From a virus (Duplodnaviria > Caudoviricetes), in the IMG/VR virus record IMGVR_UViG_3300042844_000089, positions 1 to 34,056 of that record: 34,056 bases of DNA; one strand, 5' to 3'. The notes beneath the pieces were generated by a model. It made no database searches and had not been told where the DNA came from. It was given only the letters and a program-made list of their open reading frames with translations. Within the stretch, counting starts at the first letter, position 1. Each line of letters opens with the position of its first letter. The translations under genes were made by a program, and so were the position numbers. Positions 3,918-17,385 of this stretch are shown here, one piece after another.

Positions 3918-4735
3918 TTGATTCCCATCTCTTTCCGCAGCCGGTCGGCTGCTTCCTGGGCCGATCTCGCCGCCCTGTCCAGTTCCCTGATGGTGCTCTC
4001 CGCCTGATCCTTCGTCTTTTCCAGTGCGGCCACCCCCCGGCTGAACTCCTTCAGCGCGTCCGCCGCACCCTCGGGTGACAGCCTCTCTTCCCAGGCGTAA
4101 TCAGACAGCTCGACACCGAGGGCCGCCTCCAGCCGGTCCATCAGCTCCAGCCGCCGCCGGTCCTTCTCGCTGAAGATGCCACGCTGGCGCCGGGTCTGCT
4201 GCTCCTGCTCGTAGAACTTCGCACGCAGTGCACTTTCCTGCTTCCGGAGAGCCTTCGTGCGCGTTGTCTCGGTATTCGTCAGCAGGGTCCGGAGCAGGGC
4301 GGCCGTGATGACGATGTCCCTCTCTTCGGGTTTCTGGAGCACCTTGAAACGGCGCCCCCGGCCGCCTGGCATCATCAGACCCCAACCCTTGGGCAGTTCA
4401 CCCTCCTGCACGATTCCGGCGTGAGGTACCACCAGCCAGAACATGTTGCAGTGCGGCCACCAAGCCTCGGCCTTCTTGGGGTTCTTCAGTTCCACGAGCC
4501 AGTCAGCCCGGCTGACCTTCAGCTCGCAGACCTCGATCGTCCCACCGCCCCGCGACGACCACAGGCCAACATGTACCGCATCCGCCCGGCGCCCGGAGTG
4601 ATCGGGTGCGGTGACCTCCGTCAGATAGATGGCACCGGCACCGGCCAGACTGAGCTGATCCTTTTCGGCGATGAAATGCAGGTTCAGCAATTCATCCAGC
4701 TCTTCCGTTGTCATGTCGCCATTCGGCGTGGCCAT
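3914..4735 (-). CDS. MmcB-like PD-(D/E)XK nuclease with coiled-coil tail
   Basis: EV...RRADAV...ELKVSRADW...K motif arrangement. Confidence 0.7.
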   Translation of the reverse strand: MATPNGDMTTEELDELLNLHFIAEKDQLSLAGAGAIYLTEVTAPDHSGRRADAVHVGLWSSRGGGTIEVCELKVSRADWLVELKNPKKAEAWWPHCNMFWLVVPHAGIVQEGELPKGWGLMMPGGRGRRFKVLQKPEERDIVITAALLRTLLTNTETTRTKALRKQESALRAKFYEQEQQTRRQRGIFSEKDRRRLELMDRLEAALGVELSDYAWEERLSPEGAADALKEFSRGVAALEKTKDQAESTIRELDRAARSAQEAADRLRKEMGIK

Positions 4736-13579: not shown

Positions 13580-13684
13580 ACTTTTTCCTTTTCTTCATCT
13601 TTCCGACAAGTACACTGCGGGGATTTCTCCCAGAAGGACCATCATCAGGTATCTAGCCCGACGGGGTACCCCGCGCCTTCATTG

Positions 13685-13757
13685 CGCTCCTGGCAGGATT
13701 TGAACCTGCGACGTCCGACTTAGAAGGTCAGCGCTCTATCCCCTGAGCTACAGAAGC
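13685..13757 (-). tRNA. tRNA-Arg(UCU)
   Basis: GCTTCTG/CAGGAGC acceptor, CTGAC-CT TCT AA-GTCGG anticodon arm, GGTTCAAATCC T arm; no CCA. Confidence 0.93.
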
Positions 13758-13768
13758 ATTTCTCAACC

Positions 13769-14164
13769 TCACCAGATGTCGTAAAACATCCGGCGGGACC
13801 TTTTCTCTGCTTTCTCGTAAAGCCTTTTCTCGAAGTCACCCTTCGCCCGGCGCGCAACGTCGAGCTTGCTCTTCACGTATCGCCGGTTGGCCCGTTCGTG
13901 CTTCTGGGCCCAGTACGTGCGGGTCGAACTCGGAGTCCAAGCCCCCGTGTAAGTCCACCAGCTTGCGGTACGCCGGACCTTCTGAGGCTGCGGTCGCCTA
14001 CCCTTCTCTTCAGCGTCACGTAGTTCCGCAGCGCTGTATCGAAGGTCATAGACAGTGTGCTCGCGAACGGGGACAGTGGGGCGTCCCCGCCAGTACATCC
14101 CGTACCCGTCAGGCCATTCCCGGGTATCGAACTTCCCTGGAATGTGGTGTGCAGTCTTGCCCAT
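13769..14164 (-). CDS. Basic Arg/Trp-rich hypothetical protein under uORF/hairpin control
   Basis: AGGAGG RBS; 131 aa. Confidence 0.8.
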   Translation of the reverse strand: MGKTAHHIPGKFDTREWPDGYGMYWRGRPTVPVREHTVYDLRYSAAELRDAEEKGRRPQPQKVRRTASWWTYTGAWTPSSTRTYWAQKHERANRRYVKSKLDVARRAKGDFEKRLYEKAEKRSRRMFYDIW

Positions 14165-14174
14165 CGGAATAGAT

Positions 14175-14228
14175 CCTCCTAGGGCCGCGAATTTCGCGGA
14201 CCTAAGTGAACCCGGTGAGGAAGTTCAT
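14175..14228 (-). promoter_or_regulatory. Leader uORF (MNFLTGFT*, 14228-14202) whose UAG lies in a hairpin covering the downstream RBS
   Basis: CTTAGG-T-CCGCGA-AAT-TCGCGG-C-CCTAGG-AGG; the uORF has its own AAGGGG RBS. Confidence 0.6.
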
Positions 14229-14274
14229 GAGCCCCTTACGCCTTCCCGTGAGGAAACGACGACATCCACTTACG

Positions 14275-14392
14275 TGAGGAGAGCAGGATTCGAACCTGCG
14301 ATCACCGCTGACCCGCGCCGTTGCGTACGCCTAGCGCGGAGACGGATCAACCGGATCGTGTCCGGCCCCATAGGCCACTCGGGCATCTCCCC
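14275..14392 (-). ncRNA. Atypical tRNA-like RNA (118 nt): 5-nt anticodon loop, 51-nt variable arm
   Basis: GGGGAGA/TCTCCTC acceptor, class-II-type D arm, CCGGA-CACGA-TCCGG, canonical GCAGG-TTCGAAT-CCTGC T arm. Confidence 0.8.
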
Positions 14393-14402
14393 TGGTAGAA
14401 CA

Positions 14403-14597
14403 TCAGATGATTCCGCGCCGGACCATCTTCTGGACCAGCTTGCCCGTCTTCTCCCGGTGCCTCTGCGCGGCCTCCAGGCCCTTCGACTTCTCGATCTCGT
14501 CGGACTTGATGCCGCGATGCGTCACCACCATGTCGACCCACTCGGCCGTCAGGGGTGGACTGATCGCCTCCTTGATCCTGTCGTACCTCTTGCCCAT
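14403..14597 (-). CDS. Small hypothetical protein
   Basis: GAGGAG RBS; 64 aa. Confidence 0.7.
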   Translation of the reverse strand: MGKRYDRIKEAISPPLTAEWVDMVVTHRGIKSDEIEKSKGLEAAQRHREKTGKLVQKMVRRGII

Positions 14598-14621
14598 CTT
14601 CTCCTCTTTCCGTTGTTTTTA

Positions 14622-14737
14622 GTGAGCCTCATCCCTAGCCCACGCGGCGCACCGGCCTTGTTCTGCTGCGCTTCTCAACCGATCCGGCCATCGGGCGGAG
14701 GGTGACCGAATTCCACTCCCCTCTATCGAGGTTCCAC
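14622..14737 (-). ncRNA. Candidate structured RNA in the tRNA-Gln trailer
   Basis: Closing helix CCTC/GAGG region plus CCGAT/ATCGG and GCGCA/TGCGC hairpins; no credible ORF. Confidence 0.35.
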
Positions 14738-14748
14738 CACGTGCTACG

Positions 14749-14820
14749 CTCCCCAGCCTAGACTTGAACTAGGACTCCCGATTCCAGAGACCGGTGGTCT
14801 GCCAATTAACCTACCGGGGA
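14749..14820 (-). tRNA. tRNA-Gln(CUG)
   Basis: TCCCCGG/CTGGGGA acceptor, CCGGT-CT CTG GA-ATCGG anticodon arm, G73. Confidence 0.92.
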
Positions 14821-14834
14821 TCGTTATTCAATTA

Positions 14835-14935
14835 CCTGGCAACCGAACGGCAAACACTCCGCGCACGGGCTGAATCCGCCTCTTCATTCCACCCGCCACA
14901 GTGGACTGACGTCAACAGCTTACCGTTCGGCCAGG
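14835..14935 (-). ncRNA. Candidate structured RNA with a long bulged closing stem
   Basis: CCTGG/CCAGG plus 13-bp CCGAACGGTAAGC/GTTTGCCGTTCGG; the G-U pairs form only on the minus strand. Confidence 0.55.
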
Positions 14936-14937
14936 AT

Positions 14938-15014
14938 GCAGAAGAAGTGACCCGAACGAGCTTGAATGTGAACACCCAATCCGCTTAGTGCTCTCGTTCA
15001 GGTTCTCGACCTGC
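14938..15014 (-). ncRNA. Candidate structured RNA
   Basis: 11-bp ACCTGAACGAG/CTCGTTCGGGT enclosing a GAGCACT/GGTGTTC hairpin. Confidence 0.45.
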
Positions 15015-15034
15015 GGACGACTCCCTCTACAACG

Positions 15035-15111
15035 TGGCCCCGACCAGAATCGAACTGGTGACCTCTCGCTTTTCAGGCGAGCGCTCTAACGCAAAACTGA
15101 GCTACAGGGCC
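15035..15111 (-). tRNA. tRNA-Phe(GAA)
   Basis: GGCCCTG/CGGGGCC acceptor, CTCGC-CT GAA AA-GCGAG anticodon arm; enlarged D loop lacking GG. Confidence 0.9.
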
Positions 15112-15152
15112 AGGGTCCTCTCCTCGCATCCGAAGACGCGCGAAGAGGATGG

Positions 15153-15326
15153 CTAAATGTCCATGGCGATGTCCTTGGCGCAGTCATTGTGCAACCAGCG
15201 CCGACAGTCTTCTCCATTTACATCTTGATCGTATGGATCGATCGTCCAGAAAACGTCTCTCCCGACCGTTCCCACCACTTTGCAATGATCGCACTTGCGT
15301 CGCAGCTTTTTCTTTGCTTCCACCAT
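15153..15326 (-). CDS. Small zinc-finger-like protein, 57 aa (MVEAKKKLRRKCDHC...DPY...LHNDC...MDI), absent from the ORF track
   Basis: Translated by hand; GAGGAG RBS, CxxC...HxxC. Confidence 0.75.
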   Translation of the reverse strand: MVEAKKKLRRKCDHCKVVGTVGRDVFWTIDPYDQDVNGEDCRRWLHNDCAKDIAMDI

Positions 15327-15379
15327 TTCTCCTCTATTCGAATACCCTTGAATCGAGTTCGAGGTGAAATGGTCTTGCG

Positions 15380-15451
15380 TGCACCCGACTGGAATCGAAC
15401 CAGTGCATCCACTTTAGGAGAGTGGCGCTCTATCCCCTGAGCTACGAGTGC
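15380..15451 (-). tRNA. tRNA-Arg(CCU)
   Basis: GCACTCG/CGGGTGC acceptor, CCACT-CT CCT AA-AGTGG anticodon arm. Confidence 0.93.
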
Positions 15452-15452
15452 T

Positions 15453-15595
15453 TGGCCCCTCCACTGATAAGTTAGGCAGGAGGGCTCCCTTCAACACCTC
15501 CTGGAATGAGGTTGGCGTTGAACTCACTTGACTCACTCACCATCCGACGGATAGCCACCGAAGCGACGAACTCCATCAGACGTTTTCCAGGGCCA
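15453..15595 (-). ncRNA. Candidate multi-stem ncRNA with cUUCGg tetraloop and kissing loops, filling the Asp-Arg spacer
   Basis: TGGCCC/GGGCCA closing stem; TCTGATGGA/TCCGTCGGA; GTCGC-TTCG-GTGGC; CAGGAGG/CCTCCTG; TTCAACG/TGTTGAA loop-loop complementarity. Confidence 0.6.
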
Positions 15596-15596
15596 G

Positions 15597-15674
15597 CGCA
15601 CCTGACGGGATTTGAACCCGCGAAAATCTCCGCCTTGACAGGGCGGCGAGGACTCCAGACTCCTCCACAGGCGC
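15597..15674 (-). tRNA. tRNA-Asp(GUC)
   Basis: GCGCCTG/CAGGTGC acceptor, CCGCC-CT GTC AA-GGCGG anticodon arm, G73; 8-nt variable loop. Confidence 0.92.
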
Positions 15675-15683
15675 ATGATTTAC

Positions 15684-15953
15684 TCAGTTTGCTGAAGCTA
15701 CGGCATGCCACTCTGCGGTGACATCGCTCCCCACTTTCTTACATATCAGGGAACCGCCACTAATCGTGATCCCCTTAGCCCCTTCCGGTGCACATGGAAC
15801 GTTCACCCATCGCTTGATGACCGGATGTGCAGGTGCAGAACTCTCTCGCCCTCCCTCTACTGGATCCTGGGAATCTTCTCCTGCGCATGATGTCGCAGCG
15901 AAAATCAAACCAAGCGCTGCAAATCCGTAGACGATCTTACGCATTTTCCTCAT
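15684..15953 (-). CDS. Putative lipoprotein
   Basis: MRKMRK + hydrophobic stretch + ATSC lipobox; C-terminal Cys pair. Confidence 0.7.
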   Translation of the reverse strand: MRKMRKIVYGFAALGLIFAATSCAGEDSQDPVEGGRESSAPAHPVIKRWVNVPCAPEGAKGITISGGSLICKKVGSDVTAEWHAVASAN

Positions 15954-15978
15954 TCTTTTCTCAAGAATCATTCCCATG

Positions 15979-16050
15979 TGCGCCCTACTGGACTTGAACC
16001 AGTGCACGAAGATTAAGAGTCTCCTGTTCTACCAACTGAACTAAGGGCGC
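15979..16050 (-). tRNA. tRNA-Lys(CUU)
   Basis: GCGCCCT/AGGGCGC acceptor, GGAGA-CT CTT AA-TCTTC anticodon arm. Confidence 0.93.
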
Positions 16051-16076
16051 CCGACATTCGGTTTTTCTTCTTTCTC

Positions 16077-16394
16077 CTATCGTACCATGCGCTGAAGGCT
16101 CACGTCCCAACTGCACTCCATGCGAAGCCTGTTGAGATCCTCGCCTCCGGCCGGATCATCCTTGTCGCATCGCACCCAGCCGGTCTCCTCAGACCACTTG
16201 GAATACCAGCCATACTCCTGGCATTCCAGAATTCCCGGCCAGATGCCGCTCCATCGCGTGTTGCACGACATGCCCTTGCAGGAGCAGTTCAGCCGTTGGT
16301 AGCCGTTCCACCTGCACCGGGCCACATCGCAGCCGTCCTGGTGGAATTCTCCGGGCTTTACTGCACAATCGGGACAGTTGGGTAGTTCTTCCAT
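16077..16394 (-). CDS. Cys/Trp-rich hypothetical protein
   Basis: GGAGG RBS; CPDC.V.PG..H..GCDVARC motif. Confidence 0.8.
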   Translation of the reverse strand: MEELPNCPDCAVKPGEFHQDGCDVARCRWNGYQRLNCSCKGMSCNTRWSGIWPGILECQEYGWYSKWSEETGWVRCDKDDPAGGEDLNRLRMECSWDVSLQRMVR

Positions 16395-16412
16395 CACTTT
16401 CCCTCCCTTGTG

Positions 16413-16485
16413 AGCCCCTGACCGGAATCGAACCGATGGCATCTTCATTACGAGTGAAGCACTCTACCGACTGAGTTACAGGGGC
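16413..16485 (-). tRNA. tRNA-Thr(CGU)
   Basis: GCCCCTG/CAGGGGC acceptor, CTTCA-CT CGT AA-TGAAG anticodon arm. Confidence 0.93.
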
Positions 16486-16487
16486 GC

Positions 16488-16660
16488 GAGAAAGTCACCC
16501 TGCTACCACCAGGCACCCGCACGCCTGGCAGGCGACTCTCTCTGTGCAGGTTGCCAAACCTGCGGTCCTCGACTAACTGCCGACGGCGCGGGAACTGCGG
16601 ATCCCGAGAGGATGGACGACGTCAGGGAAAGAGGATCTCTCACTGCACCTCTCGGGATCC
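16488..16660 (-). ncRNA. Candidate structured RNA(s): three consecutive hairpin domains
   Basis: 13-bp perfect GGATCCCGAGAGG stem; GCAGGTT/AACCTGC; 12-bp GAGAGAGTCGCC/GGTGACTTTCTC with G-U pairs enclosing CCAGGC/GCCTGG. Confidence 0.5.
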
Positions 16661-16662
16661 AG

Positions 16663-16796
16663 CTCTTTCGACAGGATTTGAACCTGCGTTAGCGCGGTGG
16701 GGCCACTCCATCCCTTGCGGGATGGTTCGAGGCTTTCACCTCTGGGGACTCAATCCCCTGCAACCGCGCCGTCCTAGGCCACTAGACGACGAAAGA
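16663..16796 (-). ncRNA. Atypical tRNA-like RNA (134 nt, Glu/Gln-type body) with a 64-nt three-hairpin domain in place of the anticodon loop
   Basis: TCTTTCG/CGAAAGA acceptor, GTCTAGTGGCCTAGGAC D arm, GCGCGGT/ACCGCGC stem, TAAC variable loop, GCAGG-TTCAAAT-CCTGT T arm. Confidence 0.85.
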
Positions 16797-16806
16797 GTCT
16801 TGCAAG

Positions 16807-16903
16807 AAGGTGTGGCCGGATTCGATACCGGCACTGAGTCGCCTTTATCCAGCGATATATCTACCGCATATCAGCGAGACCTCTACTGTTGGGTTACACA
16901 CCT
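16807..16903 (-). ncRNA. Atypical tRNA-like RNA (97 nt) with expanded anticodon/variable region and 8-nt T loop
   Basis: AGGTGTG/CACACCT acceptor (extendable to 9 bp), TAACCCAACAGTAGAGGT D region, GCCGG-TATCGAAT-CCGGC T arm. Confidence 0.7.
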
Positions 16904-16907
16904 TCAG

Positions 16908-16980
16908 TCGGGGTGACGAGATTTGAACTCACGACCTTCCGCTCCCAAAGCGGATGCTCTCCCAACTGAGCTACACCCCG
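16908..16980 (-). tRNA. tRNA-Pro(UGG)
   Basis: CGGGGTG/CACCCCG acceptor, TCCGC-TT TGG GA-GCGGA anticodon arm. Confidence 0.93.
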
Positions 16981-16990
16981 TGGATTACGT

Positions 16991-17254
16991 TCATCCGTAG
17001 TCAAGCACCTTCATGAACCCGTCCGCATGCAGTTTTTCCGCCATCTCGCAGTCCTTCTTCTTCCTTGCCGGGGACGGGAGGGCCCAATCGCAGGTGCCCG
17101 GATTCAGGAAAATATCCTTTCTCTCGCGGTCGTACTCGATCGCATTGAACGAGTTGCAGAAGAAGTTCCCGTTGTACACGATCACGTCCCCGCACTGCGG
17201 GCATAGAACCGTCGTCGGCCTGGCGCCACTGTGGCGCAGCACATGCTGACTCAC
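16991..17254 (-). CDS. Small zinc-ribbon hypothetical protein
   Basis: GGGGAG RBS; CPQCG..IVYNGNFFC...CDWAL. Confidence 0.75.
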   Translation of the reverse strand: MSQHVLRHSGARPTTVLCPQCGDVIVYNGNFFCNSFNAIEYDRERKDIFLNPGTCDWALPSPARKKKDCEMAEKLHADGFMKVLDYG

Positions 17255-17312
17255 AACTCCCCTTTCCGGTAAAGAGGTTCCGGGGCGACAGGGGTGAACA
17301 CCCCGGAACCAG

Positions 17313-17385
17313 CAGGGACGGCAGGGCTTGAACCTGCAACCGCTGGTTTTGGAGACCAGTGCTCCACCAATTGAGCTACATCCCT
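17313..17385 (-). tRNA. tRNA-Trp(CCA)
   Basis: AGGGATG/CGTCCCT acceptor, CTGGT-CT CCA AA-ACCAG anticodon arm, G73. Confidence 0.93.

Follow-up and report, generated by a model that had tools for sequence, protein, structure and literature searches.

In the tRNA array of a soil phage we find a 118-nt RNA gene with the frame of a transfer RNA, in which the place of the anticodon arm is taken by a stunted arm and the variable arm is long and ends in a self-complementary tip. We think that this element is almost certainly a real non-coding RNA under selection, neither an artefact nor a decaying gene, since the lengths of its loop and long arm are conserved among homologues, its stems show compensatory changes, and an independent strain carries it without any indel. 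It apparently represents an undescribed conserved family, with a new testable feature, within the known kind of phage tRNA-like RNAs. The window, i.e., the whole stretch of 34,056 nucleotides that was analysed, is a 34-kb fragment of a GC-rich phage and amounts to about 18% of its genome according to CheckV. In BLAST searches against cultured phages, the tRNA region and the flanking genes match Streptomyces cluster BM phages (Satis, JustBecause, and Frankenweenie), which points to a Streptomyces-type host. Nine ordinary tRNAs, all on the minus strand, are annotated by ARAGORN in the region from 13684 to 17385. The coordinates of the element are collected in Table 1.

Table 1. The tRNA-like element, its parts and the preceding reading frame (positions in the window)
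Feature	Positions	Strand	Support or remark
118-nt tRNA-like RNA gene, G1 to A73	14275..14392	-	Family model R1, 132.5 bits, by construction
Acceptor stem, 5' strand (partner 14276-14282)	14386..14392	-	Changes on both sides in 5/7 pairs; 100% of cells paired
Class II-type D arm with A14, G15, G18, G19	14367..14383	-	Those positions invariant in 7/7; one compensatory change
Stunted anticodon-equivalent arm, invariant 5-bp stem and 5-nt loop (14356-14360)	14351..14365	-	Stem and loop length fixed in 7/7
UGAY, 5' strand of predicted tandem sheared G.A/A.G motif (partner 14301-14304)	14346..14349	-	UGA invariant in 7/7
Long variable arm: lower stem, internal loop, upper stem	14305..14345	-	8/9 upper-stem pairs change on both sides
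Self-complementary hexamer CGUACG in apical loop (14321-14330), predicted kissing-loop site	14324..14329	-	Palindrome in 7/7
Canonical T arm	14283..14299	-	Family alignment and covariation
Discriminator A73, then encoded C74; CCA not encoded	14274..14275	-	A73-C74 in 7/7 members
64-aa ORF, function unassigned	14403..14597	-	10 nt upstream of the 118-nt RNA

Six homologues were found, which are 69–83% identical to the window element (69–93% in pairwise comparison of the seven members), and all of them keep the 5-nt loop and a variable region of 51–53 nt. A metagenome scan covering 39 of the 64 parts of the collection, in which only the D and T arms were fixed, returned 120 loci; four metagenome loci (L216, L236, L238, and L243) have the architecture of the element, and a viral scan with the short arm fixed added L268 and L271. 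A second viral scan, with a pattern for the 3' side that left the short arm and its loop free, gave 19 loci, among them the same two and the window's own genome, and no new members. The family model R1, built from the seven members and run over 297 loci, scored only copies of the seven at 126–140 bits, as is the case by construction, with the next match at 61.6 bits. None of the long-centre metagenome matches reached an E-value of 1e-10 with this model, and no version of the same stem with a 7-nt loop occurs among the 297 loci. Among the long-centre metagenome matches listed, most resemble what we take to be archaeal intron-containing tRNAs.

At least four gene contexts are represented, including tRNA arrays (window, L268, and L271), the vicinity of a single tRNA (L236), and a position between ORFs (L216), and the seven sequences may stand for some three or four lineages. 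BLAST searches with the element against cultured phages and plasmids, and with L271 and L268 against phages, gave matches of the size of the T arm only, and no cultured phage in the collection searched has this RNA family. The exact anticodon-arm pattern was found at seven viral loci, six of them unrelated to the family, while the single GTDB match (L273) and the viral matches L269 and L272 were set aside as chance matches in other DNA. Many unrelated viral contigs combine a class II D arm and intact acceptor and T arms with a long variable centre (L016, L028, L033, L038, L077, L098, L104, L108, and L125, among others), none of which belongs to the family.

The fold is well backed by the alignment of the seven members, in which 97.4% of the cells are paired and 16 of the 33 pairs show changes on both sides. 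None of 500 shuffles scored as high, a figure that is not to be read as a probability since the shuffle ignores relatedness, and slid controls were 32–52% paired. The covarying pairs are five of seven in the acceptor stem, eight of nine in the upper stem of the variable arm, two of five in the T stem, and one of three in the D stem; the 26-44 pair, which extends the stunted arm, covaries as well. On the short stem and the lower variable stem covariation is silent, since both are invariant across the members. In the long arm, the 5' strands of the upper stem are only 38% identical, and the asymmetric internal loop (UCU opposite GUCAG) is invariant. At the base of this arm UGAY faces WGAU in six members and AAAU in L271, so that the partner strand has GA in six of seven members and AA in one. 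We infer tandem sheared G.A pairs at this base, in a k-turn-like arrangement, the k-turn being defined by tandem sheared G.A/A.G pairs beside a bulge or junction (PMC10573300). An alternative partner for UGAY is the invariant GUCA.

Both ARAGORN and an Rfam search of the whole window at gathering thresholds missed the element, and a permissive Rfam search scored it as a tRNA with 39.4 bits (E 5e-6). Its folding energy as a single sequence is unremarkable (z −0.99) and the short stem of the window copy has a pairing probability of about 0.3, due to a competing fold; the support for the fold therefore comes from the homologues. The initial annotation had described intact acceptor, D and T arms, and these are all present, as an acceptor of 7 bp with one G.U, a class II-type D arm, and a canonical T arm. 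It had also given a 5-nt loop CACGA on a 5-bp stem and a 51-nt variable region (14350–14300), both of which stand and, as it had proposed to check, are conserved in the homologues. Regarding its hairpin in the variable region, the long arm was right but the apical GCG-UA-CGC helix was not, for it needs a 2-nt loop where the homologues have an open loop of 10–11 nt; neither the conserved self-complementarity of the tip nor the tandem GA at the arm's base had been noticed.

The possibility of a sequence error, also raised there, is answered by contig X2, from an independent soil run of another study, which spans 13619–15469 with 48 substitutions in 1851 nt and 0 gaps. The odd lengths of loop and arm hold in this independent strain and are thus not due to an assembly indel. 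If the gene were a pre-tRNA with an intron, a pseudogene in decay, or the product of misassembly, this would account for its excess length as a tRNA and for the resemblance between UGAY and WGAUC at either end of the long arm, of the kind left by a small duplication. However, inspection of the seven-member alignment reveals no excision that restores a canonical anticodon arm, RtcB was found in none of the five records searched, and both the strong covariation and the ungapped independent strain argue against a pseudogene or an error. We regard this explanation as largely refuted, its probability being barely appreciable.

The 5-nt loop occurs in all seven members with four sequences: CACGA, CGCAA (three members), CCUAA (two), and CGAAA. 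The would-be triplet shifts among ACG, GCA, CUA, and GAA, and no member has U at position 33. With a loop sequence that drifts in this way, neither decoding nor frameshifting is likely, and we think that the element is very probably non-decoding, as the initial annotation had suggested. Some of its other proposals do not find support in these data: neither a frameshift-promoting RNA nor a tRNA-Ser(CGA) lacking positions 37-38 agrees with a triplet that changes across the members and with the lack of U33, and the alternative 7-nt register of the loop needs the loss of position 26, and a compensatory A12-U pair in L268 backs the standard register of the D stem. In that shifted register the element might be conceived as an unusual translating tRNA of the allo-tRNA type, with diverse anticodons and missense or frameshift decoding. 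The covariation of the 26-44 pair and the invariant C and A that flank the triplet would suit such a tRNA, the anticodons of allo-tRNAs are highly diverse (PMC5389517), and extensions of the variable arm can be tolerated in translation (PMC7590224). Yet U33 is absent, the loop is closed by an A-U pair, and even the most favourable register leaves the arm short by one base-pair step. Across related phages the triplets would stand for Arg, Cys, amber, and Phe, and SerRS rejects a bulged variable arm (PMC7590224), so that translation by this RNA is improbable.

With regard to tRNA identity, the 7-bp acceptor, the 5-bp T stem, and the D/T elbow residues of a canonical class II tRNA are present, and all seven members lack the conserved anticodon and the 7-nt anticodon loop containing U33 of such a tRNA. 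[quoted passage not shown] For tRNA-Leu, A15:U48 and A20a are needed, and for tRNA-Tyr its anticodon (PMC9976931). The element does have the A73 of tRNA-Leu, but with G15:C48 and a pyrimidine at 20a, and the Tyr anticodon is absent from it. Moreover, a bulge in the stem of the variable arm blocked the serylation of allo-tRNAs (PMC7590224). For these reasons aminoacylation, which the initial annotation had held possible, appears doubtful. Acceptor pairs 3–7 drift freely. Processing of the RNA as a tRNA by the maturation enzymes of the host is likely, judging from the invariance of the elbow and of A73-C74 and from the presence of C74 also 3' of all nine canonical tRNAs of the window.

The apical loop of the long arm contains a 6-nt palindrome in all the members, CCUAGG in five and CGUACG in two, in the order N, hexamer, and then (R)CAA or CCA. 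The two alleles differ at positions 2 and 5 of the hexamer, which cannot pair within one loop since only two bases lie between them; they would pair across two molecules. Among the five CCUAGG members, identity in the adjoining stem is as low as 39%, and CTAG is depleted about tenfold in the window (12 observed versus 113.5 expected), in L296, and in L297. The palindrome was noticed post hoc, after inspection of the data. The chance that a random loop of 10–11 nt contains one is about 9–11%, and of 135 possible double changes 9 preserve a palindrome. The covariation may amount to one event, since the unresolved tree does not reject that the CGUACG allele arose only once (p-AU 0.247). The computed duplex energies of the two hexamers are −8.0 and −6.4 kcal/mol, and folding predicts that the palindrome is partly paired intramolecularly in the window, L238, and L268. 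Palindrome switching has been used as evidence for the intermolecular kissing loops of OLE and GOLLD that were confirmed by cryo-EM (Kretsch et al., bioRxiv 2024.12.08.627333). The element displays this mark of a symmetric kissing loop, a palindrome kept in 7/7 through compensatory change between two alleles, possibly in one event. In our opinion the balance leans towards homodimerisation of the element by kissing of its apical palindromes. The prediction of this model is that both natural alleles homodimerise without cross-dimerising.

An exposed and conserved apical loop would also be in keeping with a tRNA-framed antisense RNA whose loops pair with target mRNAs. The C4 RNA of phage P1, an RNase P substrate, is such a tRNA-framed antisense RNA. 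In our case no exact complement of the tip lies elsewhere in the window (18% of the phage genome), and G001 and G002 have one unmatched site each versus 3–7 control matches, so an antisense role has a slight probability. A self-assembling structural RNA, dimeric or of higher order and comparable to GOLLD, ROOL, and OLE, could have a role outside defence and use the tRNA frame for processing and stability only. The palindromic tip and the complementary loops of a two-arm relative in cluster BM phages agree with this explanation, ROOL is found near tRNA islands and forms RNA-only cages (bioRxiv 2024.12.08.627333), and natural RNAs of less than 200 nt form oligomers (bioRxiv 2026.07.01.735769). 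Nevertheless, only one intermolecular contact is evident, and the acceptor end, A73-C74, and the elbow are as strictly kept as in a tRNA, which suggests recognition as a tRNA; we consider a purely structural role fairly unlikely.

This two-arm relative is a second class II-type look-alike of 118–119 nt, located in cluster BM phages near FtsK and outside the main array, with two long arms that have complementary loops. Within each of the eight aligned sequences CCAG in one loop goes with CUGG in the other, invariantly, giving four invariant pairs plus one variable pair, and 21 of 42 pairs covary. It was observed at L141:907-1028, L142:903-1023, L143:914-1034, L144, L145, L146, L222, L223, L224, and L242, where GenBank has no annotation for it or labels a part as tRNA-Ser. 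The element family and the two-arm RNA are mutual best non-self matches (43–49 bits) and share the length of 118 nt, the D arm, A73-C74, and loops that are able to kiss; they differ in that the two-arm RNA has a long arm at the anticodon position and two complementary loops, whereas the element has one palindromic loop. The slot of the window element holds a different look-alike in all 10 of the other BM-type loci, among which L007 and L009 are near-copies of L002. This D-loop-insert RNA (L001:7881-7981, and the same slot of L002, L003, and L005–L011) carries a long hairpin within its D loop as well as a stub arm whose GACG loop is invariant, and it is absent from G000, G001, and G002. The complete genomes G001 (260 kb) and G002 (153 kb) contain one copy each of the element family and neither the two-arm RNA nor the D-loop-insert RNA, the usual slot of the two-arm RNA being empty in G001. 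G003 and G004, which both supplied sequences to the models of these two RNAs, have both of them and lack the element family. The comparison of these four genomes hints that the element family and the two BM look-alikes have interchangeable roles. Other tRNA-framed RNAs of 170–230 nt, with a conserved multi-helix insert, were seen at L001:6981-7213, at L003:6969-7137, and in L271 upstream of the element, and they also match unannotated DNA of other Streptomyces phages. In L008 (about 4245-4712), a tRNA-Asn is split by approximately 400 nt resembling an HNH-type ORF, the motif having been recognised by eye.

For decades, the tRNA clusters of phages have been known to include tRNA-like RNAs that do not decode and have no assigned function, for example species 1 and 2 (RNA C and D) of the T-even phage T4. 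To our knowledge there is no report of a stunted anticodon arm together with a self-complementary variable-arm tip in the T4 RNAs, with which the element was compared by description only. Class II tRNAs for Ser, Tyr, and Leu (RF00005) share with it the 7/5 acceptor branch, the class II D arm, G15:C48, the T arm, and a long variable region, whereas the element has a 5-nt loop, neither U33 nor a fixed anticodon, A73 on a Ser-like body, and a variable region of 51–53 nt with a non-canonical base, an internal loop, and a palindromic tip. Allo-tRNAs and irregular tRNA polycistrons (Mukai et al., PMC5389517) are described as having long variable arms and variable sequences at the anticodon position, come also from soil and phage sources, and in some cases are charged but do not translate. 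As reported in that source, however, allo-tRNAs mostly have 8/4 or 9/3 branches, G73 or U73, and real anticodons; the element has A73, the 5-nt loop, and a 7/5 branch that is backed by covariation. GOLLD, ROOL, and OLE are likewise phage or bacterial non-coding RNAs, ROOL often lying near tRNA islands, and have symmetric kissing loops with switching palindromes (bioRxiv 2024.12.08.627333), but they are several hundred nt long and not tRNA-framed, and the element has no Rfam match to them.

YrlA (RF02553) is a tRNA mimic that is present in phages and serves as a substrate of tRNA enzymes (PMC4201824), with a permuted topology and a linkage to Ro60, neither of which the element has; no RF02553 match falls on it. 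A Y RNA-like partnership with the Ro60 protein of the phage might be thought of, given that three of four complete related genomes encode a TROVE protein. On the other hand, G002 has the RNA without a Ro60 match, RNA and Ro60 are about 52 kb apart in G001, Ro60 has its own weak YrlA-like neighbour, and the topology of the element is not permuted, contrary to that of YrlA (PMC4201824), so this partnership is very improbable. In BM-type phages the weak YrlA-like RNA, below the gathering score, is situated just upstream of Ro60 (L293:4180-6069, L294:3669-3779, and L295:3433-3503). Rfam 15 has no family for the element beyond the weak tRNA match, and no description of the family was found in the open full text of PubMed Central and bioRxiv. 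The term "anticodon-less tRNA", where it appears in PMC13434031, denotes a cleavage product.

Taking all this into account, our reading of the element as a processed, non-decoding, dimerising tRNA mimic, which would engage a tRNA-binding protein of the host as a decoy or scaffold, is a tentative one, with somewhat less than an even chance of being right as a whole. The maturation enzymes of the host would excise the RNA, as a tRNA, and the mature RNA would have no decoding role. The apical palindromes would join two copies in a kissing-loop homodimer, in which a tRNA-binding protein of the host would meet a pair of tRNA elbows and a pair of invariant short stems. The invariant short stem, the tandem GA base, and the internal loop might form the protein-binding surface. 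The dimer would thereby become a two-headed decoy or a scaffold; as its target, a defence enzyme directed against long-arm tRNAs is the most plausible candidate.

A decoy role, already raised in the initial annotation, would fit the data. Mycobacteriophages avoid a nuclease-sensitive tRNA-Ser(NGA) (PMC10264068), and a nucleotidyltransferase toxin selects tRNA-Ser through its long variable loop (PMC11162799); it is from these systems that the link with defence is drawn. We count in favour of the reading as a whole that no canonical long-arm tRNA appears, judged by length, among the Rfam tRNA matches of G001, G002, and G003, and that the BM two-arm RNA has complementary loops. A decoy specific for Ser is weakened by A73 and the irregular arm base, which depart from real tRNA-Ser, and an anti-phage enzyme attacking serine-type tRNAs is a possible but rather unlikely partner. 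More speculative still, large actinophages might have an RNA-only anti-defence based on interchangeable tRNA-framed RNAs, matured by the host, that work as kissing-loop multivalent mimics and soak up tRNA-attacking enzymes, this family being a homodimeric version. If the decoy role is true, it would constitute a new RNA-based counter to tRNA-depleting immunity; if only the dimer is true, the element would be a natural tRNA-framed RNA that self-assembles. A small structure backed by covariation, with a sharp prediction, is now available in a kind of phage RNA long known without a function. Cultured cluster BM phages (Satis and JustBecause) carry the related RNA and are amenable to deletion and complementation. 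Standard tRNA finders miss or mislabel such genes.

Regarding the surroundings of the element, the 64-aa ORF also precedes the RNA in genome G001 and shares 67% identity with the ORF that precedes the RNA in L268. It has no PHROG family and was not seen upstream of the other five family members, and a search with its back-translated pattern recovered the window's own genome only, despite the 67% homologue in G001. A scan for promoters and terminators gave nothing above chance. Contigs of the RNA run X3, which indicate presence and not expression, cover neighbouring parts of the array, and none of those listed crosses the element. Three spacers between tRNAs on the minus strand of the window (15455-15590, 14835-14935, and 14620-14745) are structured and conserved with BM phages and have no Rfam match. 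Further along the array, at about 16663-16796 (minus strand), a body of the tRNA-Glu/His type has a multi-hairpin insert of about 60 nt in its anticodon arm; it was missed by ARAGORN and Rfam, and a contig of the RNA run covers 16585-16891. Next to it, at about 16807-16904 on the same strand, lies a tRNA-like element of irregular form, with what appears to be an 8-bp acceptor stem, an 8-nt T loop, and a long central arm.
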